From the NCBI RefSeq assembly GCF_004010195.1, contig NC_057752.1:10010512-10073151 (forward strand): a DNA stretch of 62,640 nt. Direction: 5' to 3'. The notes under the pieces were generated by a model. It had not been told where the DNA came from. It saw only the letters and a list, made by a program, of their open reading frames with translations, and made no database searches. This stretch comes from Chiloscyllium plagiosum. Its lineage: Eukaryota. Shown in pieces: positions 7,030 to 58,250 of this stretch. Each line of letters starts with the position of its first letter. The stretch's first letter is position 1. The position numbers and the translations under genes were made by a program.

Positions 7030-8420
7030 AAAGTGAGGACTGCAGATGCTGGAGATCAGAGCTGAAAAATGTGTTGCTGGAAAAGCGTAGCAGGTCAGGC
7101 AGCATCCAAGGAGCAGGAGAATCGACGTTTCGGGCATAAGCCCTTCTTCAGGAATGAGGAGGGGGAGTTAAAGGTTGGGTCCAAATTTTGTTGGTCGGAA
7201 CGTAGTCCGGAGTCCATGCGGGGTCAGTCGGTTCCGTAGGCAGGTGCTGAGGAAGGAGATGTGGCTGTGGTAGCGAGTCTGTTTGAGGACGTGGCTGAAG
7301 AGCTTCAGGGCAGAGGAGATGACCTGGGGGGTGCAGTGAGAGAGGGACTCACTGAGGTCCTTGTAGAGGGAGGAAGAGAGCTTCTTCAAGGAAGGCATCC
7401 TTGCAAGAGGATTCGCAGTAGGTTAAAATCAACTAGGAGAAAGTGAAGACTGCAGANNNNNNNNNNNNNNNNNNNNNNNNNNNNNNNNNNNNNNNNNNNN
7501 NNNNNNNNNNNNNNNNNNNNNNNNNNNNNNNNNNNNNNNNNNNNNNNNNNNNNNNNNNNNNNNNNNNNNNNNNNNNNNNNNNNNNNNNNNNNNNNNNNNN
7601 NNNNNNNNNNNNNNNNNNNNNNNNNNNNNNNNNNNNNNNNNNNNNNNNNNNNNNNNNNNNNNNNNNNNNNNNNNNNNNNNNNNNNNNNNNNNNNNNNNNN
7701 NNNNNNNNNNNNNNNNNNNNNNNNNNNNNNNNNNNNNNNNNNNNNNNNNNNNNNNNNNNNNNNNNNNNNNNNNNNNNNNNNNNNNNNNNNNNNNNNNNNN
7801 NNNNNNNNNNNNNNNNNNNNNNNNNNNNNNNNNNNNNNNNNNNNNNNNNNNNNNNNNNNNNNNNNNNNNNNNNNNNNNNNNNNNNNNNNNNNNNNNNNNN
7901 NNNNNNNNNNNNNNNNNNNNNNNNNNNNNNNNNNNNNNNNNNNNNNNNNNNNNNNNNNNNNNNNNNNNNNNNNNNNNNNNNNNNNNNNNNNNNNNNNNNN
8001 NNNNNNNNNNNNNNNNNNNNNNNNNNNNNNNNNNNNNNNNNNNNNNNNNNNNNNNNNNNNNNNNNNNNNNNNNNNNNNNNNNNNNNNNNNNNNNNNNNNN
8101 NNNNNNNNNNNNNNNNNNNNNNNNNNNNNNNNNNNNNNNNNNNNNNNNNNNNNNNNNNNNNNNNNNNNNNNNNNNNNNNNNNNNNNNNNNNNNNNNNNNN
8201 NNNNNNNNNNNNNNNNNNNNNNNNNNNNNNNNNNNNNNNNNNNNNNNNNNNNNNNNNNNNNNNNNNNNNTCCCCCAAGTCCATCTTCCCTACCTTTTATC
8301 TTAGCCTGCTTGGCACACCCTCCTCATTCCTGAAGAAGGGCTTATGCCCGAAACGTCGATTCTCCTGCTCCTTGGATGCTGCCTGACCTGCTGCGCTTTT
8401 CCAGCAACACATTTTTCAGC
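7030..8420. mobile_element. Penelope-like element with inverted pLTRs and an ORF N-terminus (mostly gap)
   Basis: A 14-bp TSD TCTTTATACAGGAT lies at 7016-7029 and 8421-8434. About 7060-7165 is inverted relative to about 8318-8421. Minus ORF 7168-7398 (HSHISFLSTCLRNRLTPHGL) resembles a Penelope ORF N-terminus. Confidence 0.85.
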
Positions 8421-8521
8421 TCTTTATACAGGATGGTGGGTGCGTGGAATGCACTGCCAGTGGTGGTAGTACAGCCAGATACATTAGGGACACTTGGATA
8501 GGTACGTTGATGATAGGGTAT

Positions 8522-9227
8522 TATTACGACATGGGGTATACCCCTCTGCTAATTAAAACCCGACGCAGAGAAGCTCACCTCATGGCATAATCTGTTAAGT
8601 TTTGAGAGGCAAAGAACCATTCCAGATCTCACTAGTTAAAGTAAAAATTAAAACATTTATTCTCTTAAGTCCAAAAGACAACATTAAACAACTATTTACA
8701 ACTCCTTTCTCTTAAACCTATCTTTTATCTCCCACTCTACAATATTGGTCTGATAAATTCCCTCTTAAGTTCACAGCAAATCACTTTCAAACTTAGTTGT
8801 CATCTATGGATGTCGAACTTTCTCTGTAGATTTTTCTGGGTTGACTTTGGGGTTCTGCTGCACAAATTCCTTATGGATAAGTACCTTTCAGAGAGCTATT
8901 CTGCTAGTAGTCTATACTTGTTGGTGTTCTTGGCAGTTCTGCCCCTAACTGTTCAAAATGTCCAGTTTTATACCTCAAAACATTGGATCATTTCATTGGT
9001 TTGAAGACATTAAAAAATAAATTCAAATTCGATTGGATTTTGGACTCTGGGGCATTATTTATACTGATTGGCCGGATTTGAATTTGGTTTTGTACCATGG
9101 CAGCACAGCACCAGCTATGTCAACCAAATGTTACATTTTTAACTCGTTCAGCACACTCTGTGCTTTCAGTCCTTGCCAGCTTCCTCACTGCCTTAAAGGT
9201 ACAGTACACACCTACACCTTCATAACA
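8522..9227. mobile_element. Solo LTR (706 bp) inserted in the CR1 3' UTR
   Basis: A 4-bp TSD GTAT lies at 8518-8521 and 9228-9231. The termini TATTACGA...TCATAACA match TGTTA..TAACA LTR ends with one substitution. The CR1 tail resumes afterwards. Confidence 0.75.
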
Positions 9228-9637
9228 GTATGTAGGTTAGTTTGATTTTAGAGTAAGCTAAAAGGTCGCGCAACATCGAGGGCTGAAGGGCCTGTATTGT
9301 GCTGTACTGTTCTATGTTCTATTCTTTTAATCTTACACTGTCCTAAACTCCCTTTTTTAGCCATGCTTGATCGGCCTTTTTTGAATTTTTGTACCTTGAA
9401 AGAATGTTTAGTTGCTTTAAATCATGTAATGGTTCTTTAAAAGCTATCCATTGCCTTTGTAGTCATGACCTTTAATGTATTTCCCCAATTCACCTCAGCC
9501 AATTTCTGCCTCATGCCTTCTCAAATTTAATACCTGTGCTTCAGAATGAATGATTTCACTTTCAAACATAATGTAAAATTCCATCATATTGTAGTCACGC
9601 ATCCCTAAAGGTTCTTCAGAACAAGATTGTTATTTAG

Positions 9638-12600
9638 CAGGGATGGCAAACACAGCCCCGTCAACCATGCAAAGTCTGCCTTACCAACATCTGGGGCCTA
9701 TGCGAAAATTAGGAGAGGTGTCTCACATACTAGTCAAACAACTGACATAGTCATATTCAGGGAATCATACCTTCTGGACAACGTTCCCCATATCATCACC
9801 CCAGGGTATCCCACCTGCAGGACAAATCCAACAAAGGTGGCAGCACAGTGATATATATTCAGAGGGAGCTGCCCTGGGTGGCCTCAACATTGACTATATG
9901 AAGTCTCATGGCATCAGGTTAAATATGGGCAAGGAAACTTCCTGCTTATTAACACATACCTCTTCCCTTGGCTGATGAATCAGTACTCCTCCATACTGAA
10001 CACCACAGACTAAGGCTGGCAAAATGGGGGAATTTCAATATGGCTCTGCAGCAGCGCTGCTGATTGAGTTTGTTGAATCCTAAAGGACATAGCTGCAAGA
10101 ACGTGACTGTCACAGGTGGTGAGGGAATGAACAAGAGGGAAAAACATACTTGACCTTATCTTGACCAATCTGCTTGATTCAGATGCATCTGTCCATGACA
10201 ATATTGGGAAGAGAGACCACCTCACAGTCCTTGTGGGGATGAAGTCCTGAGAATACCCTATCCTGTTGTATCACACTATCACTGTGCTAAATGGGACAGA
10301 CTTCGAACAGATCTAGCTACTCAAGACTGGGCATCCATGCGGTACTGGGGGTCATCAGCAGAAACAAAAGTGAACTCCAAACAATCTGTAGCCTCGTGGC
10401 TTGGCATATCCCCCACTCTGCCATAACTTCATGTCAGGAGATCAACCCTGATTCAATGAAGAATGCAGGAGAGCATGCCAAGAGCAGCACCAAGCACACC
10501 TAAAAATGAAGTGTCACCATGGTGAAACTACCAAACTGGACTACTTGAATGCCAAACAACAGAAAGAGGAAGCAATATACAGAGCTAAGTGATTCCACAA
10601 TCACTAGATCAGATCTAAGCTCTGAAGTCTTGCCACATCCAGTTGTGAATGGTGATGGTCAATTAACTGGAGGAGGAGGCTTCACAAGTATCCCCATCCT
10701 CAATGATGGGAGTGCCCAGCATGTCAATGCAAAAGATAAGGCTGAAGTATTCACAGCAACCATCAGTCAGAAGTGATACATCGTGCCTTTCTCCAGAGGT
10801 TCTCACCAGCACAGGTGCCAGTCTTCAGTCAATTCAATTCACTGCACATGATATCAAGAAACAGCTGGAGGTGCTGGATATTGAAAGGTGGTGGGTTCTG
10901 ACAACATTCTGGCAAGAGCACCGGAGACTTGTGCTTCAGAACTTGCTGTTCTCCGAGTTAAGCTGTTCCAGTACAGCTACAACACTGGCATCTACCTGAC
11001 AATGTGGAAAATTGCCCAAGTATGTCCTGTACACAAAAAGCAGGTCAAATCCACTCCAGCCAATTATTCACCCATTAATCTACTCTTGATTATCAGTAAA
11101 GTGATGGAAGGTGTTATCAACAGCGCTATCCATCAGCACCCTGTTCAGCAATAACTTGCCGACTGGCGCCCAATTTGGATTCCATCAGAGCCATTCAGCT
11201 CCTGATGTCATTACAGGCTTGGTTCAAACATGGACAAAGAACTGAATTCCAGAGGGGAGGTGACAGTGACAGCCCTTGACATCAAGTCTCATTTGACTAA
11301 GTGCATATCAAGGAAGACTTGCAAACAATGAGTCAATGAGAATCAGGGGGAAAACTCTCCATTGATTGAAGTCATACTGAGCACAAAGAAAAGTGTTTGT
11401 GGCTGTTGGAGGTCAGTCATCTCAGCTCCAGGACATCTCTGCAGGAGTTCCTCAGGGTAGTGTCCTAGGCCCAGCTATTTTCAGCTGCTTCACCAATGAC
11501 TTTTCCTCCATCATAAGGTCAGAAACATATTCAGGACTGATTCTTGACTGCTCAGAAACTGAAGCAATCCATATTGAAATGCAGCAAAACCTGGACTGAT
11601 AAGTACCCAGTAACATTCACACCACACAAGCTAAACAGTAATCATCCAAGAGAGAATCTAACCATCACCCCATGACAAATCCAACCCAGCCAATGACCAT
11701 CCCATTCTTTTACTCTTGATCATCAGTAAAGTGATGGAAGGTGTCATCAACAGGTGCCATCAAGTAGCACCTGGTCAGAAATAACCTGCCCCCGATGCCC
11801 CATTTGGGTTCTACCAGGGCGACTCTGCTCCTGACCTCATAATAGCACTGCTTTAAACATGGACAAAAGAGCTGAATTCTAGAGGTGAGGTCAGAGTGAC
11901 AGCCCTTGACATCAAGGCAGAATTTGACCAAGTGTGGCATCAAGGAGCCGTAGCAAAACTGGAGTCAATGGGAATTGGGGAAAACTCTGGTGGTTGGAGT
12001 CATAACTGGCACATAGGAAGATGGTTGTGGTTGCTGGAGGTCAGTCATCTCAGCTCCAGGACATCTCTGCAGGAGTTCTGGGTAGTGTCCGAGGCCCAAC
12101 CATCTTCAGCTGCTTCAACAATGACCACCTCTCCAGCATAGGGTCAGAGGTGGCAGTGTTCACAGATGATTACACAATGTACAGCACCATTCACAACTCC
12201 TCAGATACTGAAGCAGTCCATGTTTAAAATGCAGCAAGACCTGAACAATACCCAGGCTTGGGCAGAAAAGTAGCGTGTAACATTCATGTCAAATAAATGC
12301 CTTGCAGTGTCCATCTCCAAGAGAGAATCTAACCATTCTCCCTTGACATGCAACTGCAATGAACATCACTGATCCCACCCCAACTATCAACATCCTGGCT
12401 ATTACTGTTGACCAAAAACTGAACTGGACTAACCATCTTAATACAGTCATTGCAAGAGCAGGTCAGAGGCTAGGAATTCTACAGTGAGTAACTCACCTCT
12501 TGCCTCCCCAGAGCCTGTCCACCATCGACAAGACAGAAGTCAGGGGTGTGGTAGAATACTCCCCACTTGTCTGGATGGGTAAAGCTCAGACAACACTCTA

Positions 12601-12968: not shown

Positions 12969-14993
12969 ATAGTCCTTTTCATTGCATCATAGTAGATCTA
13001 AAATCACATGTCCTCGGGTTATCTCCTCAACATACTGCTCTAGAAATCCATCCCTAACACATTCCAGAAATTCATCCTGTACAGTTTGAGTGCTCAATTC
13101 GTTTACCCAGTCTACATGCAGATTGGAGTCACCCATGATAACAGTGTTGCCCATGCTGCATGCTTCTCTAAGTTCTTGATTAATAACATGTCCCACACTA
13201 GCACTACTGTTTGGTGGCCTGTAAATAACTCCAACCCATTGTGCTGTCCTTTTTTGTTTCTTAGTTCCACCCAACCAGATTCCACAAATTGTTCTTCCAA
13301 TCTGAGATCCTCACTTACAAAAGTACTGTGTCTGTCCCCTATTTTCAGTGCAACTCCACCTCCTTTTCCTTCTTAAGCCTCAAATATCCTTTGGTAATTC
13401 AGTTCCCAGTCCTGGTCACTGTGCAGCCATATTTGTTTCATGGCAATTAGATCATTCCCATGTATCTCTATACATGCCTTTAACTAGTCTACCCTTGCAA
13501 ATGCCACATCGTTCAGGTAGAGTATCCTTAGCTTTGTGTTGACATTATTCTGCTTTCAAAGCATATTTGATGCTCAGCTTAGTTTCTCCTCCTCCCAAGT
13601 ATCTTCTCAACTTCCTGTTACCATCTTTACTTCCTTCCGATTTGTGTTACCCTACTGGTTCCCATCCCCCTGACAATTAATCAGTTTAAATTAATCTCAG
13701 CAAATCTCCCTGCAAAGATATCAGTCCCAGTCCCGTTGCAGTGTGACCTGTCCAGCTTGTACAGGTCCCACCTGCTCAGAACCGGACCCAATTGCTCAGA
13801 ATTCTGATGCCCTTCTTTATCCACCTGTTCCCTGGCCACATATTCAATTGATTAGTCCTTGTATTCACTAGCATGTGGTACTGGGAGTAATCCTGAGATT
13901 CTGTGTTCCTGCTTTTTTAAAATTTCCTTTCTAGCTGCCTGAAATATGCCTTCAGCACCTCATCCCTCTTCCTGCCTTGCTTGTTGGTACCAATGTGGAC
14001 CACGACTTGTGACCGATCCCTCTCCCACCAGAAGAATGTCATGCAGCTGCTCTGTGACATTTTTGACCCTGGCACCAGGGAAGCAACACACCTTTCTGGA
14101 ATCAATACGCTTTCCTGTAGTCCCATCTACTACCACAAAAATACCTGTCTGATCCCCTGACTATGGAATCCCCTCGAAGTATTGCTCTTCTATTATTTTT
14201 CCTCTTCCGCTGTACAGCTGAACCTTCCACAATGTCATGAGATTGATGGCAGACCACTTGGAAAGCAGTGACAGGATTATATTGCATGCTTTGTGCCAGT
14301 GTTAAAGACATCCCCGGGCTGGAGAGGAAGTTGCAGTGGAGGGGAAGGATCTGAGTTTTGTCTTCCAAGTTGGTACCAACAACATTGATAGGACTAAACA
14401 AGTGGTTCTGCTGACAGATTTTGAACAGTTGGGACCGAAACAAAAAAGCTGAATCTCCAAGGTAATAATCTTGGGATTACCACTTGAGTCACAGGCAAAC
14501 TGGTATAGGGTAAAGAATGTGGATCTCAAAGATTGAGGTGGGAGGAATGGGTTTCAGTTTCTGGAAGGGTGGTACCAGTACTGGGGTAGAAAGCTTTTCC
14601 AATGATACAGGTTTCAATGTAGTCATCTGTGGAGAGAAAACAGAGAAAGGTCACTGAACTCGAAACATTAACTAATTTTTCTCTTCACAGCTGCTGCCAG
14701 ACCTGCTGACATTTTCTAGCAATTTCTGATTTTTATTTCAGATTATCAGACCCGCAGTTTCTTGTTTTGTTCACTTTAACCATGCTGGGACCAGTATTCT
14801 GGCAAATTAAATAACTAGGGCTGTAAAGATGGCTTTAAACAAAATAGAGGGAAAGAAGGGTTGGAAGAGGAGAAATGTAGGTTTCCAAAGTTTAGTGATT
14901 GGAACCGAGTGAACGTCATTGACTGAGGTCCTTGCTTGGGGTTGTTAACCTGGGCCAATTAGGAAAATTGTGGCTGACCACTGGAAACAGGAG

Positions 14994-15871
14994 CGGAGGT
15001 ATGTCAGGGTGGACTGAGAGCCAGCAGCGGCATGGGGTGGACTGAGAGCCGGCAGGGGCATGGGGTGGACTGAGAGCTGGCAGGGGCATGGGGTGGACCG
15101 AGAGCCAGCAGGGGCATGGGGCGGACTGCCTTAGAGTGGCCGGAAGGTGGGAGGGATGGGCAACTTGCTGGGGTGGGGGGGTTACCTGTATTCTATGCAC
15201 TGTTTCTCATTTGATTGGACTGTCCTGTATGTATTTGGTACTATTAATTTTGTAATGAATGAAACTGGGATTTGAGGTTGTGGTGTAAAATTCCAAGCAG
15301 TGGAATGTGGTGAAACGGTTAAAAGTTATGTCCCAATACATGTGTGAATCTAACCGGAATGGAGGTGTTGCTTAGTCCCGTGTGAATCTTCTTATCTGTA
15401 TGTAACCAGAATGGAATGTGTTTTTCTGCTGTTCACATGAATGTTTATATCTGGAAAAGAGTATATCAGCCGGAAAAGTCTCCAGTTCGGTGAGTCTGCT
15501 CCGGGGTTACGTTTAACCGCCGAGCGTGGGTTGTTGGCAACCGCTCTACGAGAACTGACGGCTCCCAGTTTTTGTAACATGTAGAGTGAGTATAAGCCAG
15601 ACCCGTTGTGCGACGCTGCGGGGAATAAAATGCCCATATTCTAGCAGTCTCGCCTCTTGGTCGTTTGTTCTGTGTCAGACTACTCTCCTACGAACCTGAC
15701 CTTGAGAATTTTTTAAAACAGAGGTTTGTCCTCATTTCCCTGTAAACTGGTTGAACGGTGGGGTTTGGGGCCTGTCTTTGCTGCTCCTCTCCCTTGTAAA
15801 ATTGCTGTTTCCCTGTATACAGCTGTTAATGTTAACTGTTTGTTTGTAATTTGTGCTGGTTAATAAAAAAA
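14994..15871 (+). mobile_element. Non-autonomous Tx1-related element, unit A (carries a nested solo LTR)
   Basis: Its 5' region is shared with units B and C and includes about four copies of a 28-bp repeat (GGACTGAGAG at 15011, 15039, 15067; variant at 15095). It ends in AATAAAAAAAA followed by ATAAACAGGAG. Confidence 0.7.
15279..15720 (+). mobile_element. Solo LTR (442 bp)
   Basis: It has TG...CA ends and a perfect 5-bp TSD GAGGT (15274-15278, 15721-15725). TATAA lies at about 15591 and AATAAA at about 15624. The empty site GGATTTGAGGTTTGTCCTC is visible in unit B at about 16528. Confidence 0.9.
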
Positions 15872-15882
15872 ATAAACAGGAG

Positions 15883-16705
15883 AGGAGGTGTGTCAGGGCA
15901 GACTGAGAGCTGGAAGGTGGGTAGGCCGTCCTGATTAGATTAGATTACTTACAGTGTGGAAACAGGCCCTTCGGCCCAACAAGTCCACACCGACCCGCCG
16001 AAGCGTAACCCACCCATACCCCTACATTTACCCCTTTACCTAACACTACGGGCAATTTAGCATGGCCAATTCACCTAACCTGCACATCTTTGGACTGTGG
16101 GAGGAAACCGGAGCCCCCGGAGGAAACCCACACAGACACGGGGAGAACGTGCAAACTCCACACAGTCAGTCGCCTGAGTCGGGAATTGAACCCGGGTCTC
16201 AGGCGCTGCGAGGCAGCAGTGCTAACCACTGTGCCACCGTGCCGCCCACTAAGTCCTGAGTTCGATTGTCCAGAGGAAGGAGCGGGATGCGCTGTCCTAG
16301 AGGTGGCTGGAAGGTGTGTCAGGGTGGACTGAGAACTGGAAGGTGCATGGGGTGGACTGAAAGCCAGAAGGGGCGTAGGGGTGGGCTGCCTTAGAGTGGC
16401 CAGAAGGTGGGATGGACAGGTTGCTTGCTGGGTTGCTGGGGGGGCGGGGGTCTGTATTTTATGCACTGCTTTTTATGTAATTGGACCGTCTTATGTATTT
16501 GTTACTATTTTGTGATGATGGAAAGAGGGATTTGAGGTTTGTCCTCATTTCCCTGAAAACTGGTTGAACGGTGGGATTTGGGGCCTGGCTTTCCTGCTCC
16601 TCTCCCTTGTAAATTTGCTGTTTCTCTGGAAACAGCTGTTAATGTTAATTGTGTTGTAAACTGTATTATTTAATAAAATACTGGTTAATAAAATAAAAAG
16701 AATAT
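15883..16705 (+). mobile_element. Non-autonomous Tx1-related element, unit B (carries a nested V-SINE)
   Basis: It is flanked by ATAAACAGGAG at 15872-15882 and 16706-16716. The 5' end is nearly identical to unit C, the 3' part is homologous to unit A, and it has an A-rich tail with AATAAA. Confidence 0.75.
15935..16248 (-). mobile_element. HE1-type V-SINE, full length
   Basis: It has a tRNA head, V core and (TAATC)n tail, with TSD GTCCTGA at 15928-15934 and 16253-16259. Confidence 0.92.
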
Positions 16706-16716
16706 ATAAACAGGAG

Positions 16717-18955
16717 AGGAGGTGTGTCAGGGCAGGCTGAGAGCTGGAGGGTGGGCAGGCTGTCCTGAGCTCCATTGTTCAGAGGAAGGAGCAGGACGGG
16801 CTGTCCTTGAGGTGGCCGGAAGGTGTGTCAGAGCGGGCTGAGTGCCGCAGGCTGCGTCGCAGCAGACGACCTTGTGGCCGGAAGGTGGGAGGGCTGGGTC
16901 ATTTGCTGGGTTGCCGGGGGTGTCTGTGTTATGTGCACTGTTTTATTGTTGGGTTGATCCAACTGTCTTGTATGTGTTTGTGTCTATTGTTTTCACTTCA
17001 GTGAGTTAAGGTTTGTTTGCGTTTCACTGTAAATTGTTACATGGTTGGGTTTGGGGTTTGGCCTTGCAGCTCCTTTCCCCTGGACCTTCCACCTTTGCTG
17101 CCGCCACCTGGACCTTCCACCTTTGCTGCTGCTGCCGTCACCTGGACCTTCCACCTTTGTTACCCTCACCTGGACCTTCCACCTTTGCTACCCTCACCTG
17201 GACCTTCCACCTTTGTTACCCTCACCTGGACCTTCCACCTTTGCTACCCTCACCTGGACCTTCCGCCATTGCTGCCCTCACCTGGACCTTCCACCTTTGC
17301 TGACCTCACCTGGACCTTCCACCTTTGCTACCTTCACCTGGACCTTCCACCTTTGCTACCCTCACCTGGACCTTCCACCTTTGCTGCTGCTGCCCTCACC
17401 TGGACCTTCCATCTTTACTGCTGCTGCCATCACGTGGACCTGCTCCCACTCTCAGCAGGGAGAAGGGGGAGGCAGCAGAGGGCGACCGCCCAGAGGAGGG
17501 TTCGGCTGGGTTTGTCTTCAATGAGGTTTTAGTCTTCCTTGTGCCCCCAACCAAGATTCCCCTTCTCTCATTCGAGGAACTCCGGGACTTTATTGCGAAT
17601 ACCTGTGATCGCTATAATAGGATATCGTTGGTTCTCGACTGCTGGCAAGTGTTTTGGCTGGTCTTCTCGTTCACACGTCCTGCTGTCCATACACCCAGTC
17701 TGGCCCAGAGTGACCGGCAGCAGTTCAGAACGTTACTCTCTGCATGCAGAGGGAGAGCGAGGGATCTTTATGCCTCTTCCCCTGTCCTCCCAGTAAGTCT
17801 TTTCACAGTTTCTCTGCTCATGGTTGCACACTGAAGACTACCATAGGTAGCCTCAACATCAACGGCAGCAGGGAGTGTCAATCCAGATTCCTGACCTTGG
17901 GCCTTCAGAACGGGAAGTATGCAGTGTGCTTCCTGCAAGAAACCCATACCACCCAGGAAGAAGAAGCCTGACTCCATCGCCTTCGCTTTTGGAGCGTCTA
18001 GCATCGACAGCTTGTGTGTTTTGTGGGCGTACGCCTCCTGCATTCTAGCAGCCTCCATGCCGCAGGTGTTGTGCAATGGCCATCACCTGGTGTGGGCGGA
18101 ACTCCTTCCCCCCGTTCGGGACCTGGCTGGGATCCGCGTACTGGCACTTCAACAACCTGCTGCTCGAGGACGAGCGGTTCCGGGACTCGTTTTGTCAGTT
18201 CTGGGCCGGCTGGAGAAGGAAGCGGGGGGGGCATCCCCCCCCTTAAGATGGGACATGGGCAACACTCACGTCTGTGTCTTCTGTCAGGAGCACGTGGCGG
18301 GGTCAACAAAGAGGCGGAAATCCAGGATCAAGGAATTGGAGAAGAAGATGTTTGATCTGGAGTCATGTCTCAGTCAGCCCGATGTGGGCCCGGCTGGTGG
18401 GGCTGTGTGTTGTGGGAGGGGGTGGCGGTGGTGGTGTCGTGATGATGGTGATGGTGGTGGTGTATGATGAGAAGAAGGCCTCGCTCTGAGACCTGCAGCT
18501 CGTTGAGTCCTGGGGCATGTACATGGGGTCACGGATCTGGCTCCTCCAAGACCTGGATCGCAGCTTCCCATTCTGCTCACTGACACCCATCAGCAGCTCC
18601 TGGCCGACAATGGGTCCCTTGTCTTGGACCTGGACACCATCAGGGCCCAGATTCACATCTATTGCACAGCTTTGCTCTCTCCAGATCTGTCCAGCGAGGA
18701 TGCTTTTAGAGTTTTGTGGGAGCTCAACCTGGAGAATGCTGGAAGGCTCAACACTCCCGTCATGTTTGAGGAACTGACTGGCACCCTCGACCGGCTCTCG
18801 CGAGGCACGTCCCTGTGGCTGGATGGGCTGACTGTAGAGTTCTTCAGGGCATTCAGGGATGTCCTGAGGGGCGACTATGCGAAGGTCTTTACGTCTGGAG
18901 AGCCGCCCCTTTTTTGGTGGAATATTAATAAAGTTATTTACAACTGGGAAAAAAA
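16717..18955 (+). mobile_element. Tx1-clade (L1 group) non-LTR retrotransposon, 5'-intact and internally deleted, unit C
   Basis: ORF2 remnants are TIGSLNINGSR and FLQETH (APE), GSAYWHFNNLLLEDERF, WDMGNTHVCVFCQEH..IKELEKKMFDLES and LDGLTVEFF, all closely resembling Xenopus Tx1 ORF2 as recalled. The 3' end is GGTGGAATATTAATAAAG...GGGAAAAAAA. Confidence 0.85.
17079..17440 (+). repeat. 28-bp minisatellite (CCTGGACCTTCCACCTTTGCTACCCTCA), roughly a dozen copies, inside the Tx1 element
   Basis: The unit recurs at 17169, 17197 and onwards. Some units carry GCT expansions. Confidence 0.95.
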
Positions 18956-20244
18956 TATAACCAGAATCCCCTCAGTTAAGGGACTGACTCCAAGCTGGCT
19001 GGCCACAGCCAGTGTACTGTGCATAAGTAAATAAAGGGTGACCTGGTGATGGGATACCAGCCTCTGCAGTTATTTCACAAAGCAAAAGCATATGGCAGCA
19101 TTCCAGGAAAAATTCAGAAAAGTATATTCAGGACAGTTTAACAGAAGAATATGTTGTGGATCCAAGCAGGAATCAGGCCATTTTAGCTCTGGTAATGTGT
19201 GATGAGGCAGATTTAATAAATGACCTCAGAGTAAAAGATTCCCAAGCAAACAGTGACCACAAAGAGGTGGGATTTAGTGTTTAATTTGAGAGTGAGAAAA
19301 TTAAGTCAGTAACAGCTGTACTAAAGGTATGGTAATTCCTTCCAAGGGAAGGTGGGCAGAGATGGCTAAAGTAAACTGGGAAAGAAGTTGAGCAGGAATG
19401 ATAGTTGAGGAACAATGGCAGATGTTTGCAAAATAGTTCATGACTGACAGTGAAGATATATCCCAGTGAAAAAAGAAGATTCTAGAAAGGGAACAATGGT
19501 TTGCTAGAGAAGTTAGGGATAGTATCAAATTGAAAGAAAAAGAAACATACAATATGGCAAAGGTTAGTGGTATACCAGAGGTTTAGGAGAGTTTTTGAAC
19601 CTAACAAAAGATGGCAAAAAAATAGAAATGGTCAGTAACAGCTCCCTTAAATATATAGAAAGGAAAGATGAGACCAAAATGAACATGGGCCTCTTAGAGA
19701 ATGAGGCTGGGGAAAATAATAATTGGAAACCAGAAAATGGCAGAAAAATTGAATAGATACTTTGCATCCGTCTTCATAGTACAAGATGCTAATAATATTT
19801 TCAAAAATATCAAACAATCCAAGGGCAAAAGGAGAAGAGGAAATAACTACAGTAACTATCACTGGAGCAAAAGTAATAATGAAACTAATGATGCTAAAGG
19901 CTGATATGTTCCTTGGACCTGATTGGGTGCATTCTAGGATATGAAGGGGAGTAGTAACTTTAGACAGCGGATGCACTGGTAGTAATCTTCCAGGAATCCT
20001 TAGATTCTAGAAAACTCCCAGAAGCTTGAAAATTGCCAGTGTAACACCCTTGTTCAAAATGGGAAGAAGACAAAACAAAACTGGCAAAGATAGGCAAGCT
20101 AGCAAAACGTCTGTCATTGGGAAAATGTTTGAGTCTATTATGAAGGATGTAATTGTAGAACATTTAGAAGCACATAATTTAATCAAGCAGAATCAGCATG
20201 GCTTATGAAATGGAAATCATGCTTGAAAGTTTTATTCGAATTCG

Positions 20245-20735
20245 TTTGGTCCATCAAGTCTGTACTGACCCTCCAAAGAGCACCTTACCTAAACCCCGAC
20301 CCTATCCAAAAACCCTGCATTTATCATGGCCAGTCCACCTAACCTGCACATCTTTGGACTGTGGGGTGAAAGGAGAAAGTGAGGGCTGCAGATGCTGGAG
20401 ATCAGAGCTGAAAATGTGTTGCTGGAAAAGCGCAGCAGGTCAGGCAGCATCCAAGGAACAGGAGAATCGATGTTTCGGGCATAAGCCCTTCTTCAGGAAG
20501 CCCTGAAGAAGGGCTTATGCCCGAAACGTCGATTCTCCTGTTCCTTGGATGCTGCCTGACCTGCTGTGCTTTTCCAGCAACACATTTTCAACTGTGGGGT
20601 GAAACCAGAGCATCTGGAGAAAACCCATGCAGACACGGGGAGAATGTGCAAACTCCATACAGGCAGTCGCCCAAGGCCAGAATTAAACCCAGGTCTCTGT
20701 TGCTATGAGAAAACAGTGCTAACCACTGTGCCAAG
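20245..20735 (-). mobile_element. V-SINE interrupted by a Penelope hairpin
   Basis: The V-core halves flank the 20372-20590 insertion. Confidence 0.85.
20372..20590. mobile_element. Penelope pLTR-derived fold-back (about 89-bp arms, 4-nt loop)
   Basis: 20409-20497 is inverted relative to 20502-20590. A 14-bp TSD ACTGTGGGGTGAAA lies at 20358-20371 and 20591-20604. Confidence 0.9.
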
Positions 20736-21479: not shown

Positions 21480-22260
21480 ATAAGGGAGTTGGGACATCAT
21501 GTTGAGGTTGTATAGTATGTTGGTGAGGCCACTTTTGGAGTATTGTATACAGTTCTAGTTATCATGCTATAGGAAGGAATTTTTTTCCTTTTTTAATATT
21601 TTATTAAACCGTACACAGTTTACAAACAATTGACATTAACAGCTGTATACAGAGAAACAGCAATTTACAAGGGAGAGGAATGGCAAATCCAAACCCCAAA
21701 CCCTACAGTTCAACCAGTTTTCAGCGAAATGAGGACAAACCTCAAATCCCACTTTCAGTAGGAAGGATATTATTAAATTGGAGAGGGTTCAGAGAAGTTT
21801 TACCAGGGTGTTGCCGGGACTAGAGGGTTTGAGTTATAAGAAGAGGCTGGATAGGCTGGGTTCTTTTTCACTGGAGCATAGGAGGTTAAGGGGTGATCTT
21901 ATGGAGGTTAATGAAATCATGAGGGGCATAGATAAAGTGAATAGCAAAGGTCTTTTCCTGAGGGTGGGGGAGTTCTAAACTAAGGGGCGTACTTTTAAGG
22001 TGAGAGGAGAAAGATTTAGAAAGGACCTGAGGGGTAACTTTTTCTCACTGTGTGGTTCATATGTGAAATAAACTGCCAGAGGAAATGGTAGATACAGTTA
22101 CAGTCACAACATTTAAAAGACATTTGGACAGGTGTATAAATAGGAAAGGTTGAGAGGGATCTGGGCCAAATGAAGTCAAACGTGACTAGTTTGGGAAACT
22201 TGGTCAACATGGACAAGTTGGACCAAAGGGTCTGTTTCCATACTGTATGAGACTGTAATC
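21480..22260 (+). mobile_element. CR1 3' fragment
   Basis: It encodes LVRPLLEYCIQF and ERVQRSFTRVLPGLEGLSY..RLRGDL, followed by a CR1 3' UTR. Confidence 0.85.
21580..21757 (-). mobile_element. 5'-truncated copy of the unit A/B 3' end, inserted in CR1
   Basis: The reverse complement matches GGGATTTGAGGTTTGTCCTCATTT...CTCTCCCTTGTAAATTGCTGTTTC plus an A tail. A TSD TAGGAAGGA lies at 21570-21578 and 21759-21767. Confidence 0.85.
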
Positions 22261-37657: not shown

Positions 37658-37963
37658 GTGAGTATTCTTCTTGTGCAGGCTAGATGGTGAATATTGGCAG
37701 GGTAGTTGACTGAGGGAGCATCATAACTGTCTTTGATCATATTGTCGTTTCCAGCAGGCAGTTTCCTGATTGTTTATTGCCTCAGGGATACTCAGGCAAC
37801 TTTTAACAACCCTGCTACCGAAGTCATCACAGACTGAATCTGGGATTTTCCTGGTTTATTTAACTTAACATCAATCCAGGCAAGTTACACTCATGAGGCA
37901 GTTCATGGATTCTGTATTTGATCTAAATACCTATTTTATTATAAATTGTTCTCATTTCTGCAG
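37658..37963 (+). other. Putative 5'UTR intron of the GPR182-like gene
   Basis: A consensus donor CAG|GTGAGT lies at 37655-37663. An acceptor TTGTTCTCATTTCTGCAG ends at 37963, 22 nt before the GCCATG start. Confidence 0.65.
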
Positions 37964-37985
37964 ATTCTACAAGGAGAGCTCAGCC

Positions 37986-38993
37986 ATGATGACTCCTAAC
38001 ATCAGCTTGCATGTCAACAACAGTGATGACTGCTATGGTTATAACTGCAGGTGTTTGATATATTTGGATTACAAGACAATGGACATGACAATGTTTTCTT
38101 TCTATCTATTCTTTCTTTTGGTAGGTCTGATAGAAAATATCATTGTCATTTGGATAAACTGGCGGTTGGAAGGGTCCAGGAAAGAAAGCAATCTTTACAT
38201 TTTTAATATGGCTATCGCTGACTTGTGTGCTGTTTTATTCATCCCATTAAGGATGGCAGAGACCTTTTACAATTACCACTGGATCTGGGGAGACTTTCTG
38301 TGTAAATTTGATTCCTTCATTTATTTTGTTACTCTGTACAGCAGCATTTTCTTCCTGGCCTGCTTTAGCATTGACAGATACGTCTCACTGCGATATCCAT
38401 TCCAAGCCCAGGGATCACGAGACCGTCATATCCGTAGGATGGTGTGTGTGTGCATGTGGACTGTGGCAATACTACTATCTGTACCACAGTTTGTGCATTC
38501 TGAAATTTTTGGTATTGTGTATATTTATTGCTACTTATCTCATGCGTTATCGTTGTATGTTACAAACTCTCTGACTTTAGTTCTTGGATTTATCATTCCT
38601 TTGCCTATAATTATACTGAGTAATATTTTCACTGCAAGAGCTATGAAAAATTCCAGTAACACAGAAAGCATAAAAACCAGTAAAATAATATATGGTTACA
38701 TCATAGCATTTTTGATATGCTGGTTACCATTTTACATAATTGTACTTCTTTCCCTACTGGATATCTTTCTTGACTGTATTGTGCTCGAGTTTATATATTT
38801 CTTTTATGACATGGTGGAGTGCCTCAGCTTTTTCCACTGTATCGTAAATCCCATTCTGTACAACTTTATACACAAAGATTTTCGGGATCATTTAACAGCC
38901 AGTGTTGTGAAGTACATGCCCAAACAATATGTCAAGGAGGATGATGATGTTTCCATTTCTTCAGACACCAGGCATATCGTGGTCATTACATGA
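37986..38993 (+). CDS. GPR182: GPR182 (ACKR5)-like class A GPCR / atypical chemokine receptor, 335 aa, single coding exon
   Basis: The intact 7-TM ORF has the GPR182-type motifs VGLIEN..VIW.NWR, NLYIFNMAIAD, YSSIFFL.C.S.DRYV.L, CWLPF and FFYD..C.S..HC..NPILYNF, plus the C-terminal TRHIVVIT (human TQHSIIIT). The start is placed at the Kozak GCCATG (37986) because the ORF-track ATG at 37893 lies upstream of the splice acceptor. Ortholog versus paralog is not resolved. Confidence 0.9.
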   Translation: MMTPNISLHVNNSDDCYGYNCRCLIYLDYKTMDMTMFSFYLFFLLVGLIENIIVIWINWRLEGSRKESNLYIFNMAIADLCAVLFIPLRMAETFYNYHWIWGDFLCKFDSFIYFVTLYSSIFFLACFSIDRYVSLRYPFQAQGSRDRHIRRMVCVCMWTVAILLSVPQFVHSEIFGIVYIYCYLSHALSLYVTNSLTLVLGFIIPLPIIILSNIFTARAMKNSSNTESIKTSKIIYGYIIAFLICWLPFYIIVLLSLLDIFLDCIVLEFIYFFYDMVECLSFFHCIVNPILYNFIHKDFRDHLTASVVKYMPKQYVKEDDDVSISSDTRHIVVIT

Positions 38994-44300: not shown

Positions 44301-46792
44301 TCAGGGGATCATGGTTGTTGGGGGAAGGCAGGAGAATGGGGTCGAGAAACATATCAGCCACGATCGAATGGTGGAACAGAGCCAGTGGGCCAAATGGCCT
44401 AATTCTGCTCCTACATCTTATGTTCTTATGAACTAATTGCTCATAAACATAAGATGTACTTTCATTTACTATGGTCTTAGTAGAGAGGTTTGCAACATAA
44501 TGCATACAAGCTAAAGAAGGATCAACTGCATTCATGTTTCAAATCCACTGGGAAAAACATACAAGCTTTGACTGTGAGCACAGACACATTTTCAAAATCT
44601 ACTCAATTCAATTATTTCGAACTATTCTTGATCCTAAATCTGTCTCACAAACTGTACTTGGTTCAGGGGTCTGAATTTTGCAGATGACGTTTCATAATTA
44701 AAGCAGTATTTTTAAAAGGATAATTTGAATTAAATAATCGAATAGATTCTGAAACAACTCCACAGAGGTTGGTATCCTCTGTGTATAGTACTTGCCACTG
44801 ATCCAGCTCCCTCAGAGCCAGCTCTCAGAGTAAACAGAACCTCTGATACTCCTGCTTCTGTCTGTCAGCCAGTGCTCTCAGATCAGGTTAACAGCCCCCA
44901 ATCAGGCAACTCATTTTATGAGGTCCACCTGGCTGACCTCGGTCTAAGACTGGGGACGTGGACCTGTTCTTTATCTTGTAGCTCCTCCTGAGATGTTTTT
45001 GCACAAAGTCCAGTTCCTCTGACTCAGCCTCGGATATGGGCGGTGTGTACCAGACCGTAGCCTGCCTCTTGCACCTGGAGCACCTCGGAAGAAATTCATC
45101 CTCTTCTTCAGACGGTAAAGGCATTAAAGCTGCGATATCCACCGTGTCCATCTCGGACTGCAATGTTTCTTCGATACTAGACAAAGGGGGAGAACCCACA
45201 GGTTCTGACAACCTTTCAAGCTGTTATGAGGGGCTGAGCATGTTTTATTCCTGCCCCATTTGCAAGTTTGCAGCTTTCATGTCATCCATGTGCTTGTTCA
45301 GGACTGTCTCACCTAGCTGAACTTTGTACACATCATGGGACCTGACCTCGTGTCAACCATACCTCTTACCCATTCATTTCCATGGTTTCTGCACCAAACT
45401 TTGTCCCTTGAAGTAAACTGTCCCTCTTGCTTAGAGGACTTCTGTGTCCCGCACTGGTTTCCTGATGCTGTTTCAGCCGTCCCCCCAGATCAGATTTAAC
45501 CTGGTACAGAGTCTTCTCCCCATTAGCAACTCTGCTGGAGCTAACCCTGTGGATGCACGAGGGGTGGTCTTATAATAAATAGGAACTGGGACAGTTTGGT
45601 ATCTAGTGAAACTGTAGGCTGTTTCTTTAAGCCTGCCTTCAAACGTTTGGGCTGCTCCTTCCACCAGACTATTGGATGATGGATGTTATGGAGCTGTACT
45701 TATATGCTGAATGCCTGAAAATACCTGAATTTGCTGCAAGTAAATGATGGCCCGTTGTCTGTGACCAACACTTCCGGAGCCCGTGTATTGCAAAAGATGC
45801 TCAGTTTTTCCATTGTTGTCCCCGTGTTTGACAAATGAATTCTATACATGTCCAATCACTTTGAGTAGCTGTCCACAATGACGAAGAACACTGTGCCCAC
45901 GAAAGGGTCGGCAGAGTCGACATATAACCGAGTCCAGGGGTCATCCAATCACTCCCCCTGTGGGGAGATGCTGGTGGTAATTTTTGTCCTTGTTGGCACT
46001 CTGGGCACTGCCCCACCAGCGCGGCCATATCTGCATCCAATCCTGGCTGCCAGATTTAACTTCTCACCATCATCTTCACTTTGGACATTTCTGGATAACC
46101 CTGGTGGAGCTCAGCCAGATGGTGACTTTTGCTTGGGGCAATCACTCTTGCTCCTTATAATAAAATGCCGAATCTACAGTGATCCGGTCTAACCAGGTCT
46201 AGAAAGGTTTCAGTTCTGGTTGAGATGGCCCTTTTGTTCCTCCCAACAGCCCCACCAGCTGTTTTACTTTTGCCAGGACCAGATCTTTCTGCAGTAAACA
46301 GTCTGATATTGTCAGCTGTGACTGGGTGTCCAGAAAGTTTAAAAACAGAGCAGACCCTTCCAGTACTGGCACCCCTTGATGGTCCATCCGCTAGCGGGTG
46401 GCAGCTCAATGCATCCACATTTGCTACTTGTCCTCCTGGACAGTGTTCCAACTTGTATGCACTCAGTGAGAGCCCACTGCTGAATTTGGCCTGAAGCTAT
46501 GGGTGGCATAGCCTTGTCCTCTTTGAGTAGCCCTAGCAGGGGTTTGTGGTCTGTTACTGTTACAAACTTACATCCATAAAGGTATTGGTGGAATGTTCTC
46601 ACACCAAAGATGACCACCCAACCTTCCTTGTGTATCTGGGTGTATTTGCACTCTGCATCAGCCAAAGTTCAGGAAGCATGCACTATTGGGTGTTTCTCTC
46701 CATTGGACCATCTGTGAGCCAACACTACCCCAATACTGTGTGGGGAAGTATTGCATGCCAGCACCAGATCTTGCTTGGGATCACAGTGTCGT

Positions 46793-47685: not shown

Positions 47686-48912
47686 GAGGCCTAACGCAAA
47701 CATAAGGATTGGATTCCAGAGTGAATTTCGTTAAAGACAGGTTCTGAACTCACTGATACAGTATTAACCTCCATTTGAACTGGGTGACCACTTAACCAGA
47801 TGATTATTTTGCTTGGTTCTGATTTGGATGTTGCTAAGCAACTTAACTGTTGCAAACTACTTGGAGGTGTGCTTTCCAGGGCGTGCATTCTCCAGGATAG
47901 CGGCCTATGTGTTCACTTACTCAATTCAGAATGAGACTCCACTACCGGGACTCTTTTGCTGTCTGGAATCTGCACACTGGCAGCAACGATAATGGCTTGC
48001 TGGCGTACATTCTGAAGAACACGTCAACCGTTTGGCTGAGGCTTGGTTTTGTTTTGGGGTTTTGCTGTGCGCTGACCGAGAGTCCCTCTGTTCAGGATAT
48101 GTCCTGAGTGAAGCTGTGCAGTGGTCTTCACTCAAGTGTGGTCCCCAAGTTCAGTCAGACTGGCGAGGGTGTCCACTTCCATTGGAATACCCTGCAAATC
48201 ATATGCTCCACTTGCTGCATTCTCCAATGACAAAGCCAGTTGTGGTGCCTGTTTGAAGTCGAGTTGGGCTTCAGCTTGCAGGGACTTTTGTATGGTTACA
48301 TCATTAATCCCACATACCAAATGGTCTCTCAGCATTTCATTACGGGTTAAACCAAAGTCACATGCCTTTTCAAAAATCCCAACACGGAATCCCCTAGTTC
48401 TCAAACTGATGAGTAAAAACTATAGCACCTCAAAGTTAGAGGAGGCTTGGAGTCGTGATATTCCTTAACTAAATCCATCAACTCTTGAAAGGTTTTAGTG
48501 TCTGGTGCCTCAGAGAAAGTTAGGCTCCTAATAATCAAAAAAGCTGCAAGTCCACAAGCTGTCAGGAGAATTACTCATTGCTTTACATCTGCCCCAGTGT
48601 CATCTGCCTGGAAAAATATAATGCATTCTTTCCACATACTGGACCAAGTCTTCAACAGCAGGGTCAAAAGAGTCAAGCTTCCCAAATAAAGGCATGATGC
48701 CAGAAATGTTTACCCCAACTCAAAGATAACTGTTACAAGCAAATTTCGTCAGAAGCACTTTATTTCTGTCATTGCCACTGACATTATTCCACAAAGGCCG
48801 GTATCCTGTCACCAAGTTACCCTTTATTTACATGTGCATAGTACTTGGCACTGGTCCAGCTTCCTCAGAACCAGCTCTCAGAGTGAGCAGACCCTCTGAC
48901 ACTCCTGTTTAT

Positions 48913-49167
48913 TTTTTATTTGTGACAGGAGGTCTGACATTCCTGTTTATTATTTTTCTTTTTTAAAACTTTTCCCCACACTACCGCCTAACAGGAGTAG
49001 TGCTTATTTTTCCCCAGCACCCATGTCGTGTGTGTGCAGGTGTAGGACATAGTGAAGAACAACAAGTGCATAAATCTTTATTTATATTCCACCACCAGGA
49101 AGAAAGGAAACACCAGACTGGCCAGTGACAAGCAGTGCCTTTCTCGACAAAGGGCAATGCTGCGTGA
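48913..49167 (-). mobile_element. Two stacked 5'-truncated Tx1-type 3' ends inside the Gypsy 5' LTR
   Basis: The target GACA(C/T)T(C/T)CTGTTTAT appears three times: 48898-48912, 48936-48950 and 49168-49182. The longer insert has GGTGGAATATAAATAAAG on the minus strand, like the unit C 3' end. Both have A-rich tails. Confidence 0.75.
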
Positions 49168-49549
49168 GACACTTCTGTTTATGTCTGTCAGTGAGGGCTC
49201 CCTGATTGGATCAGGTTAACAGCCCCAATCAGAGAACTCATATTCTATGAGGTCCACCAGGCTGACCTCGTTACAATGACTACACATCCACAATTGAAAT
49301 GTAATAGAGCAGAGCAAAAGTTGATTAAATTGCAAGAGCTTCAAGGAGAAGGCAGGTGAATGTGGCTGAGAAACATATCAGCCAGGACAGTATGGGGCAA
49401 GAATCGCTTAATTCTGCTCTTATATCTTATGGTCAATTTACCAGGTTAGTCAGATTTATCCTCCCAATCACTCAGGGCATCACATTTCCAGGCAAATGTA
49501 CAACATGCTTTTGATAGAAGAACAAATGCTGAGATCTAAAAATCTTCAC

Positions 49550-57291: not shown

Positions 57292-58250
57292 ATGGCTTTG
57301 TGTGTGAGAAATCATGTCTCACAAACTTGATTGAGTTTTTTGAAGAAGTAACAAAGAGACTTGATGAGGGCAGAGCAGTAGATGTGATCTATATGGGCTT
57401 CAGTAAGGTGTTCGACAAGGTTCCCCATGGGAGACTGATTAGCAAGGTTAGATCTCACGGAATACAGGGAGAACTAGCCACTTGGATACAGAACTGGCTC
57501 AAAGGTAGAAGACAGAGGGCGGTGGTGGAGGGTTGTTTTTCAGACTGGAGGCCTGTGACCAGTGGAGTGCCACAAGGATCGATGCTGGGTCCTCTACTTT
57601 TTGTCATTTATATAAATGATTTGGATGCGAACATAAGAGGTACAGTTAGTAAGTTTGCAGATGACACCAAAATTGGAGGTGTAGTGGACAGTGAAGAGGG
57701 TTACCTCAGATTACAACAGGATCTNNNNNNNNNNNNNNNNNNNNNNNNNNNNNNNNNNNNNNNNNNNNNNNNNNNNNNNNNNNNNNNNNNNNNNNNNNNN
57801 NNNNNNNNNNAGGGAGAGGCTGAACAGGCTGGGGCTGTTTTCCCTGGAGCGTCGGAGGCTGAGGGGTGACCTTATAGAGGTTTACAAAATTATGAGGGGC
57901 ATGGATAGAGTAAATAGGCAAAGTGCTTTCCCTGGGGTCGGGGAGTCCAGAACTAGAGGGCATAGGTTTAGGGTGAGAGGGGAAAGATATAAAAGAGACC
58001 TAAGCGGCAATTTTTTCACGCAGAGGGTGGTACATGTATGGAATGAGCTGCAGAGGAAGTGGAGGAGGCTGGTACAATTGCAACATTTAAGAGGCATTTG
58101 GATGGATATATAAATAGGAAGTGTTTGGAGGGATATGGGCCGGGTGCTGGCAAGTGGGACTAGATTGGATTGGGATATCTGGTCGGCATGGACTGGTTGG
58201 ACTGAAGGGTCTGTTTCCATGCTGTATATTTCTATGACTCTATGACTCTA
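57292..58250 (+). mobile_element. Young 5'-truncated CR1 (RT + 3' UTR; contains a gap)
   Basis: ORF 57279-57869 has RT motifs, and the tail is CTATGACTCTATGACTCTA. Confidence 0.92.

Follow-up and report, generated by a model that had tools for sequence, protein, structure and literature searches.

Non-LTR units stacked at the TATA-like word of a Gypsy LTR carry 5′ heads that resemble the LTR sequence downstream of their target

Three same-strand units (A, B and C) lie between the two halves of a solo LTR in the window, the whole stretch of 62,640 nt analysed here. They are inserted at the TATA-like word of the LTR, they are stacked by duplication of that word, their 5′ heads match the LTR family in register, and the head motif is repeated inside the units. 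Head and LTR are genuinely alike, but only modestly and over a short stretch. On balance, we lean towards the reading that the head is sequence from downstream of the target, captured once, inherited and then repeated in the 5′ UTR; we hold it to be somewhat more probable than all else. The anatomy of the stack is based on the window and one mapping of public runs, and the origin of the head is judged from the three heads in the window, B and C not being independent.

The stack and its target

The features are listed in Table 1. Head positions are numbered so that ATAAA begins, with its first A, at position 1. Many LINE and SINE remnants are present in the window, which is vertebrate DNA, and it contains runs of N at 988–1102, 7457–8269 and 57725–57810. 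Long frames at 7386–8386 are artefacts of the N gap at 7457–8269.

Table 1. Coordinates of the stacked units, the host LTRs and related features in the window
Feature	Position	Strand	Description
Host solo LTR, left half	14899–14982	+	Identical at 71/98 positions to the LTR at 49274 (left half); left edge approximate
Unit A	14983–15871	+	Short non-coding tailed element; head motif present four times, as 28-nt copies; most of module 1 absent
Head of unit A	14983–15024	+	Target word 14983–14993 and 31 nt in LTR register; these match the LTR at 48912 at 9/11 and 15/31 positions
Later insertion in unit A	15279–15720		TG...CA ends, 5-nt duplication
Unit B	15872–16705	+	Tailed, short and non-coding; module 1 gives way to module 2 at about 16308
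Head of unit B	15872–15913	+	Target word of 11 nt, followed by a 20-nt spacer and an 11-nt motif with the exact sequence of the LTR motif
SINE-like repeat inside unit B	15935–16252	−	7-nt duplication
Unit C	16706–18956	+	Internally deleted, putatively Tx1-type non-LTR element; 5′ UTR, ORF2 remnants, A-rich tail
Head of unit C	16706–16747	+	With the tail of B in front, has the letters of a full TATA box
Host solo LTR, right half	18957–19077	+	Motif 8/11, 20-nt spacing as in the LTR at 48912
Unit D	21582–21756	−	5′-truncated copy of the A/B short element; 9-nt duplication; site without the LTR word
3′ LTR of decayed Gypsy element	44750–44945	−	Empty site
5′ LTR of decayed Gypsy element	48780–49274	−	The LTR quoted in the sequence-only reading; split at the target word, three copies (49182, 48950, 48912)
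Second piece, 23 nt	48913–48935	−	A-tailed; target words on both sides
Headless tailed fragment, 217 nt	48951–49167	−	Flanked by 15-nt duplications; resembles the 3′ end of unit C over a short stretch

The halves of the host solo LTR were compared with the LTRs of a decayed element at 49274–44750 on the minus strand, and the right halves agree at 98/128 positions. The host LTR is a variant of this Gypsy LTR family (49.3–44.8 kb). The decayed element has two LTRs, and RNase H stands before integrase, which is the Ty3/Gypsy order (RT_RNaseH with E 2e-15; Integrase_H2C2 and rve below the curated cut-offs). The host repeat is therefore a Ty3/Gypsy LTR retrotransposon. The two LTR variants in the window have the 20-nt spacing between word and motif in common, and their spacers are alike at only 5/20 positions. 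A duplication flanking the host solo LTR was looked for, and no clear one was found.

The 5′ UTR of unit C is common to units A and B, and A and B are probably short non-coding relatives of C. We call unit C Tx1-type provisionally, as the name comes from the label of one distant relative (transposon TX1 149 kDa protein, the member name in one of ten looked-up clusters, E 1.4e-4). Stops, frameshifts and deletions interrupt the ORF2 remnants at 17837–18917, and the proteins to which these remnants align contain Exo_endo_phos and RVT_1 domains, in the order APE before RT; the RT core is deleted in C. A profile search with one frame of unit C gave 42 relatives at E values up to 0.001, and in ten of them that were scanned an endonuclease domain was detected in four and a reverse transcriptase domain in five. 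The closest protein relatives are predicted proteins of the whale shark (56–64%), which makes a shark or ray the likely source of the DNA. A Pfam search of three frames of unit C gave nothing relevant, and a word-index protein search with the last ORF2 piece gave none among 420 candidates. Using a 69%-identical protein, a related-locus scan returned 12 loci from metagenomes at 21–39% identity, none useful, and none from viral contigs. The head pattern had no match in viral contigs, and the LTR junction pattern had none in metagenome contigs.

Several minor features of the units were recorded. The 442-nt insert in unit A is single-copy in the window and is probably a solo LTR of another family. 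We take the SINE-like repeat in unit B to be HE1-like. Unit C contains a 28-nt tandem array at 17074–17441, in which several frames are open; its period is that of the 5′ UTR units, and its sequence is different. Over 16801–17070 of unit C, a contig of organism B shows 8 differences in 270 nt and that of organism A shows none; according to these differences, unit C probably predates the split of the two organisms.

The sequence-only reading had held that the head, by mimicking the LTR, recreates a target and so explains the stacking. Such mimicry is unneeded. In the 5′ LTR of the decayed element (49182–48912), three 15-nt target words, at 49182, 48950 and 48912, enclose two headless tailed pieces, which shows that ordinary duplication of the target site suffices to renew it. 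Aligned globally, the larger piece agrees with the 3′ end of unit C at 42/71 positions, and the likeness has its core in about 25 nt. In the window, five insertions were found at the word in two LTRs, and one copy of the short element, unit D, lies elsewhere. As unit D occupies another kind of site, the preference for the LTR is not absolute. The outer duplication at the stack is imperfect (7/12) and not decisive. The idea that the word travels with the element was considered from this mismatch (5/12, p 0.02–0.16 depending on divergence), and was set aside as not decided by it. A hairpin that contains the reverse complement of the target word could form at the 3′ end of the headless fragment (48960–49020, minus strand), and it folds no better than shuffled sequences (z −0.45). 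The 23-nt piece (48935–48913) contains 7 nt of the reverse complement of the word.

Register match and internal repeats

The quotations of heads B and C in the sequence-only reading are exact. Head A is similar, as claimed, but starts with GG and not AT. The LTR text set beside them was taken to be that of the LTR at the stack; it occurs only at 48912–48871 on the minus strand, 33 kb away. Against this LTR, heads B and C match without gaps at 11/11 positions of the word, 9/20 of the spacer and 11/11 of the motif, and then at 2/8; the match ends at position 42. Over positions 12–42 both heads thus score 20/31. In a background of 114,614 31-mers from the window outside the stack, with the LTR at 48912 included, this score is matched by one 31-mer in the case of B and two in the case of C. 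The 15/31 of head A is reached by 451. When the offset was varied from −10 to +10, the peak was at 0 (20 matches), and the next value, 14 at −8, corresponds to the gapped alignment of the sequence-only reading. With two CpG-type positions removed, 18/29 remain, a level reached by 1–2 of 114,110 background 42-mers. Local alignment without the anchor is much weaker, with shuffle p values of 0.007–0.044 for B and C and 0.04–0.20 for A.

The other LTRs match less well. The right half of the host LTR (18957 onwards) agrees with B and C at 8/11 positions in the word and at 14–15/31 beyond it (15 is reached by 553/114,614 for B), and the 3′ LTR at 44859 agrees at 17/31 (51/114,614 for B). The resemblance of head to LTR thus holds above chance for B and C in register; it is weaker for A, and poorer against the local LTR. 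As far as sequence comparison goes, homology between head and LTR is supported.

The size of the match may be inflated by CpG decay. At module 2, C is present at the second base of the motif in about half of the summed contig depth (2454.6/4408.5 in X1 and 4646.4/8955 in X9), and five bases before it in two thirds of the depth in X1. According to these variants, the family unit was formerly CpG-richer, and its decay may add to the LTR match. A match of 18/31, allowing for such decay, would be reached by 17/114,614.

The head motif also occurs internally, at 15042, 15070 and 15098 in A, at 16329 and 16357 in module 2 of B, and at 16838 in that of C. These copies sit in units of 28–29 nt. A CCGGAAG-type word occurs ten times in the units when two mismatches are allowed. 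The 5′ UTRs of the units have 62–66% GC, as against 43%. The 20-nt spacing is kept in the heads of A, B and C, whereas it is 21 in the internal modules. The units had been described as keeping the same 5′ end. All three heads do start at the same position, but the next 40 nt of unit A match the second (internal) module of B at 34/40 and the head of B at only 26/40, with the head-type spacing retained. It is as if most of module 1 had vanished between two repeats.

Between B and C, identity is 57/61 in the head, 73/88 in the next 88 nt (p 0.08 against the head) and 148/202 in the distal part (p 0.0007 against the head). Reads were also considered. Four of the 24 listed public runs were mapped onto 16252–17070 at 80% likeness. 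The summed contig depth is 27–118 (X1) and 170–505 (X9) at the head of C, and 7,706–11,090 and 14,476–20,277 at module 2, this being a rough measure and no copy number, since head-like contigs are possibly placed on module 2. With that limit, the depths hint that the exact head of C is a minority form in the family.

Promoter geometry and the origin of the head

A CCAAT box had been claimed near 14955, and it is found at 14955–14959 in the left half of the host LTR. The TATA-like box placed at the insertion is also present, but it is the target word itself, and it is degenerate at the left junction of A. In the LTR at 48912, CCAAT stands at 66 and ATAAA at 93, followed by CA 28–29 nt on and by a poly(A) signal 85 nt on. 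From general knowledge of Pol II promoters, the target word is probably a TATA box with a start site near +29. The dinucleotide at head positions 28–29 is CA in B and C and TG in A. Upstream of B and C, a tail takes the place of CCAAT. The geometry, with an element directly behind CCAAT and a TATA-like word and with the 20-nt spacing of the LTR kept, is suggestive.

A TATA box at positions 0–5 would start the RNA near +29, inside the head, and the RNA would lack positions 12–28. These positions are kept by all three copies. The head spacer matches the LTRs of the window at only 5–9/20 positions; therefore duplication of either LTR variant could not supply 12–28. Whatever their order of arrival, at least one unit of the stack would then have brought positions 12–28 on its own RNA, barring later conversion, and the transposing RNA would start at or before +12. 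Thus the TATA box of the target would be unable by itself to hand the head on. This argues against a simple hijack of the LTR promoter, and not against help from upstream elements of the LTR.

As assembled contigs cannot show RNA starts, the evidence on starts comes from one raw RNA run, a poly(A) single-cell run. About 2/100 of this run gave 140 reads, nearly all in the 3′ part and strand-biased over the 3′ part of B. In the same run, the depth over 16700–16783 (head of C) was 0–0.57 with no start cluster, the library probably favouring 3′ ends. None of the 24 loose ends listed from the mapping on 16252–17070 has an LTR flank. In 14850–17100, Rfam gave two weak matches, neither of them a ribozyme; the copies are old. 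The fold of the head of C has a z value of −1.3 to −1.6.

In the capture reading that we favour, a Tx1-type endonuclease would prefer the TATA-like word in LTRs of this Gypsy family, and each insertion would duplicate the word and renew the target, as seen in the window. An ancestor would have taken up about 30 nt of the LTR just downstream of the cut, through an unusually long duplication or an aberrant 5′ join. The captured piece would have entered the RNA; it may have drifted, or may derive from a sister LTR variant. It would then have been repeated as the 28–29-nt unit of the GC-rich 5′ UTR. Inheritance would pass through a transposing RNA that starts at or before position 12, supplied by an internal promoter or by read-through from further upstream, and not by the TATA box of the target. 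The exact register, the peak at offset 0, the end of the match at position 42 and the common start of the three heads all speak for capture. The 9/20 of the head spacer is within the range of the LTR family, as the two LTR variants of the window differ even more in theirs. Against capture stand the best match being to one LTR copy, with less to the 3′ LTR and the local LTR, and the lack of any RNA start in the one poly(A) run. A neutral fossil would also leave the conservation of the B and C heads above the distal part unexplained.

That conservation, with the heads as the best-conserved part of B versus C, would be accounted for if the head were under selection. In such a refined hijack, the LTR would give CCAAT and TATA, and the head would keep an initiator (the dinucleotide at 28–29) and the motif (32–42) at the right distance; about 17 nt lost per cycle would be restored from the neighbouring head in the stack or from internal repeats. 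We regard this as unlikely. The order of CCAAT, ATAAA and CA in the LTR at 48912, the CA in B and C, and the 20-nt spacing of the heads against 21 in the internal modules all agree with it, and if the gapped alignment were right, its 8-nt gain would balance the losses exactly. However, at least one stack unit must have carried positions 12–28 on its RNA by the argument above, the TATA word is degenerate and the dinucleotide is TG at A, and B and C have a tail upstream instead of CCAAT. The absence of a start cluster in the 140 reads counts weakly against it, given the small part of the run and the probable 3′ bias. It is also quite doubtful that the promoter is split, in the sense that a LINE cuts the host LTR at its TATA box and carries the rest of the core promoter (start site and downstream motif) at a fixed spacing; a working promoter would then be restored only by copies that land on the proper target, and tandem spares would replace the bases lost in each cycle.

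Rather than depending on the LTR, the element might have an internal promoter of its own, of the monomer type known from mouse L1, with the motif born in the element and the LTR match partly due to chance and raised by CpG decay and a shared G-rich composition. The six further copies of the motif and the ten CCGGAAG-type words fit this, as do the GC-rich 5′ UTRs, the family-wide C variants that point to a CpG-richer module 2, the unanchored p values of only 0.007–0.2 and the position of unit D outside any LTR; in the accessible text of PMC6454616, the 5′ ends of mouse L1 fall together at a single place in the monomer. The exact register, however, persists without the two CpG-type positions (18/29; 1–2/114,110), and we consider a chance origin quite unlikely; an internal promoter is in itself compatible with capture, and only the chance origin is disfavoured. 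Least probable to us is copying within the stack, in which a newcomer inserts before the head already in place and uses that head to complete its own 5′ end, by a long duplication or by cDNA annealing, so that the head of B would be a copy of that of C and the three heads would reflect one event. The identity gradient from the head outward (57/61, 73/88, 148/202) and the apparent rarity of the head of C relative to module 2 (27–118 against 7,706–11,090 in X1, by the rough depth measure) would follow from it. The drop in identity between the head and the following 88 nt lacks significance (p 0.08), the other LTR has duplications of just 15 nt, and the origin of the first head would be left unexplained.

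Comparison with known systems and other observations

LTR targeting by Tx1 families is already known. According to the accessible text of Kojima (2015, PMC4494074), the crocodilian families Tx1-8_Crp and Tx1-4_AMi prefer specific LTR retrotransposons, related short elements are often in tandem, and transcription from the flanking target was suggested; a family was termed target-specific when over 20% of its flanks fell in one repeat. The present stack is similar in having Tx1-type units in an LTR with short relatives in tandem. It differs in the site within the LTR and the target-derived head, neither of which appears in the main text of that article as accessible, and the head of Tx1-4_AMi is U1-derived. 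SINEU-2B_Crp has a 5′ extension weakly similar to its target transposon, which was read as transcription from the flank (PMC4494074, accessible text); there the extension is upstream flank, whereas here the piece comes from downstream of the cut.

A comparable pattern is that of R2 in the earwig Forficula auricularia, as described in the accessible text of Eickbush et al. (2013, PMC3774820). Each of its 5′ junctions holds a 22-bp stretch of 28S from downstream of the target, altered by three substitutions, which the authors trace to an aberrant junction that became part of the RNA template. Both cases are site-specific non-LTR elements with a uniform 5′ end holding a drifted copy of downstream target. 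Earwig R2 belongs to another clade, targets rRNA and has an HDV-like ribozyme cutting upstream, whereas the piece here is about 30 nt, far more diverged and internally repeated, with no ribozyme match in Rfam. The monomer promoters of mouse L1Md likewise consist of tandem GC-rich 5′ UTR units that offset 5′ loss, but those monomers are about 200 nt, have no target specificity and are not target-derived (PMC6454616, accessible text; monomer promoters are also treated in PMC5381506, seen to the same extent). Copies of Drosophila HeT-A are likewise arrayed head to tail, and one of them can be driven by the sequence that precedes it; HeT-A differs in being telomeric with the promoter in its own 3′ UTR, to which nothing comparable was seen here (PMC5537684, accessible text). 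The accessible text on Utopia and Keno (PMC4640811) contains nothing on promoters. Among titles and abstracts of the open-licence literature, none was found that describes a Tx1 head with copied LTR promoter sequence, Repbase and most subscription papers being outside the search.

If the head is a fossil, the pattern of earwig R2 would also hold for a Tx1-type element with an LTR target, and the target itself would be one source from which a LINE can gain 5′ UTR repeats. A functional spacing would instead tie transcription to correct targeting. How Tx1-type elements and the short elements that accompany them are transcribed, a question left open for SINEU in the accessible text of PMC4494074, could then be addressed directly by start-site mapping. 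A split promoter, if true, would mean the dependence of one transposon on another.

The short A/B/D element has the look of a large family of SINE-like type, with a body related to the 5′ UTR of Tx1. Its very abundant 3′ part (16504–16670, 15721–15871 and 21582–21756) reaches a summed contig depth of 504,444 in X1. Look-alike copies of this part are transcribed, with a strand bias of 95 versus 6 at 16532–16559 in one poly(A) run. Elsewhere in the window, a 374-codon open frame at 37869–38993 on the plus strand contains a rhodopsin-family seven-transmembrane receptor domain (E 3.5e-48). A near-perfect inverted repeat is located at 20403–20596, with 95-nt arms 4 nt apart, and the repeat recurs many times in the window.
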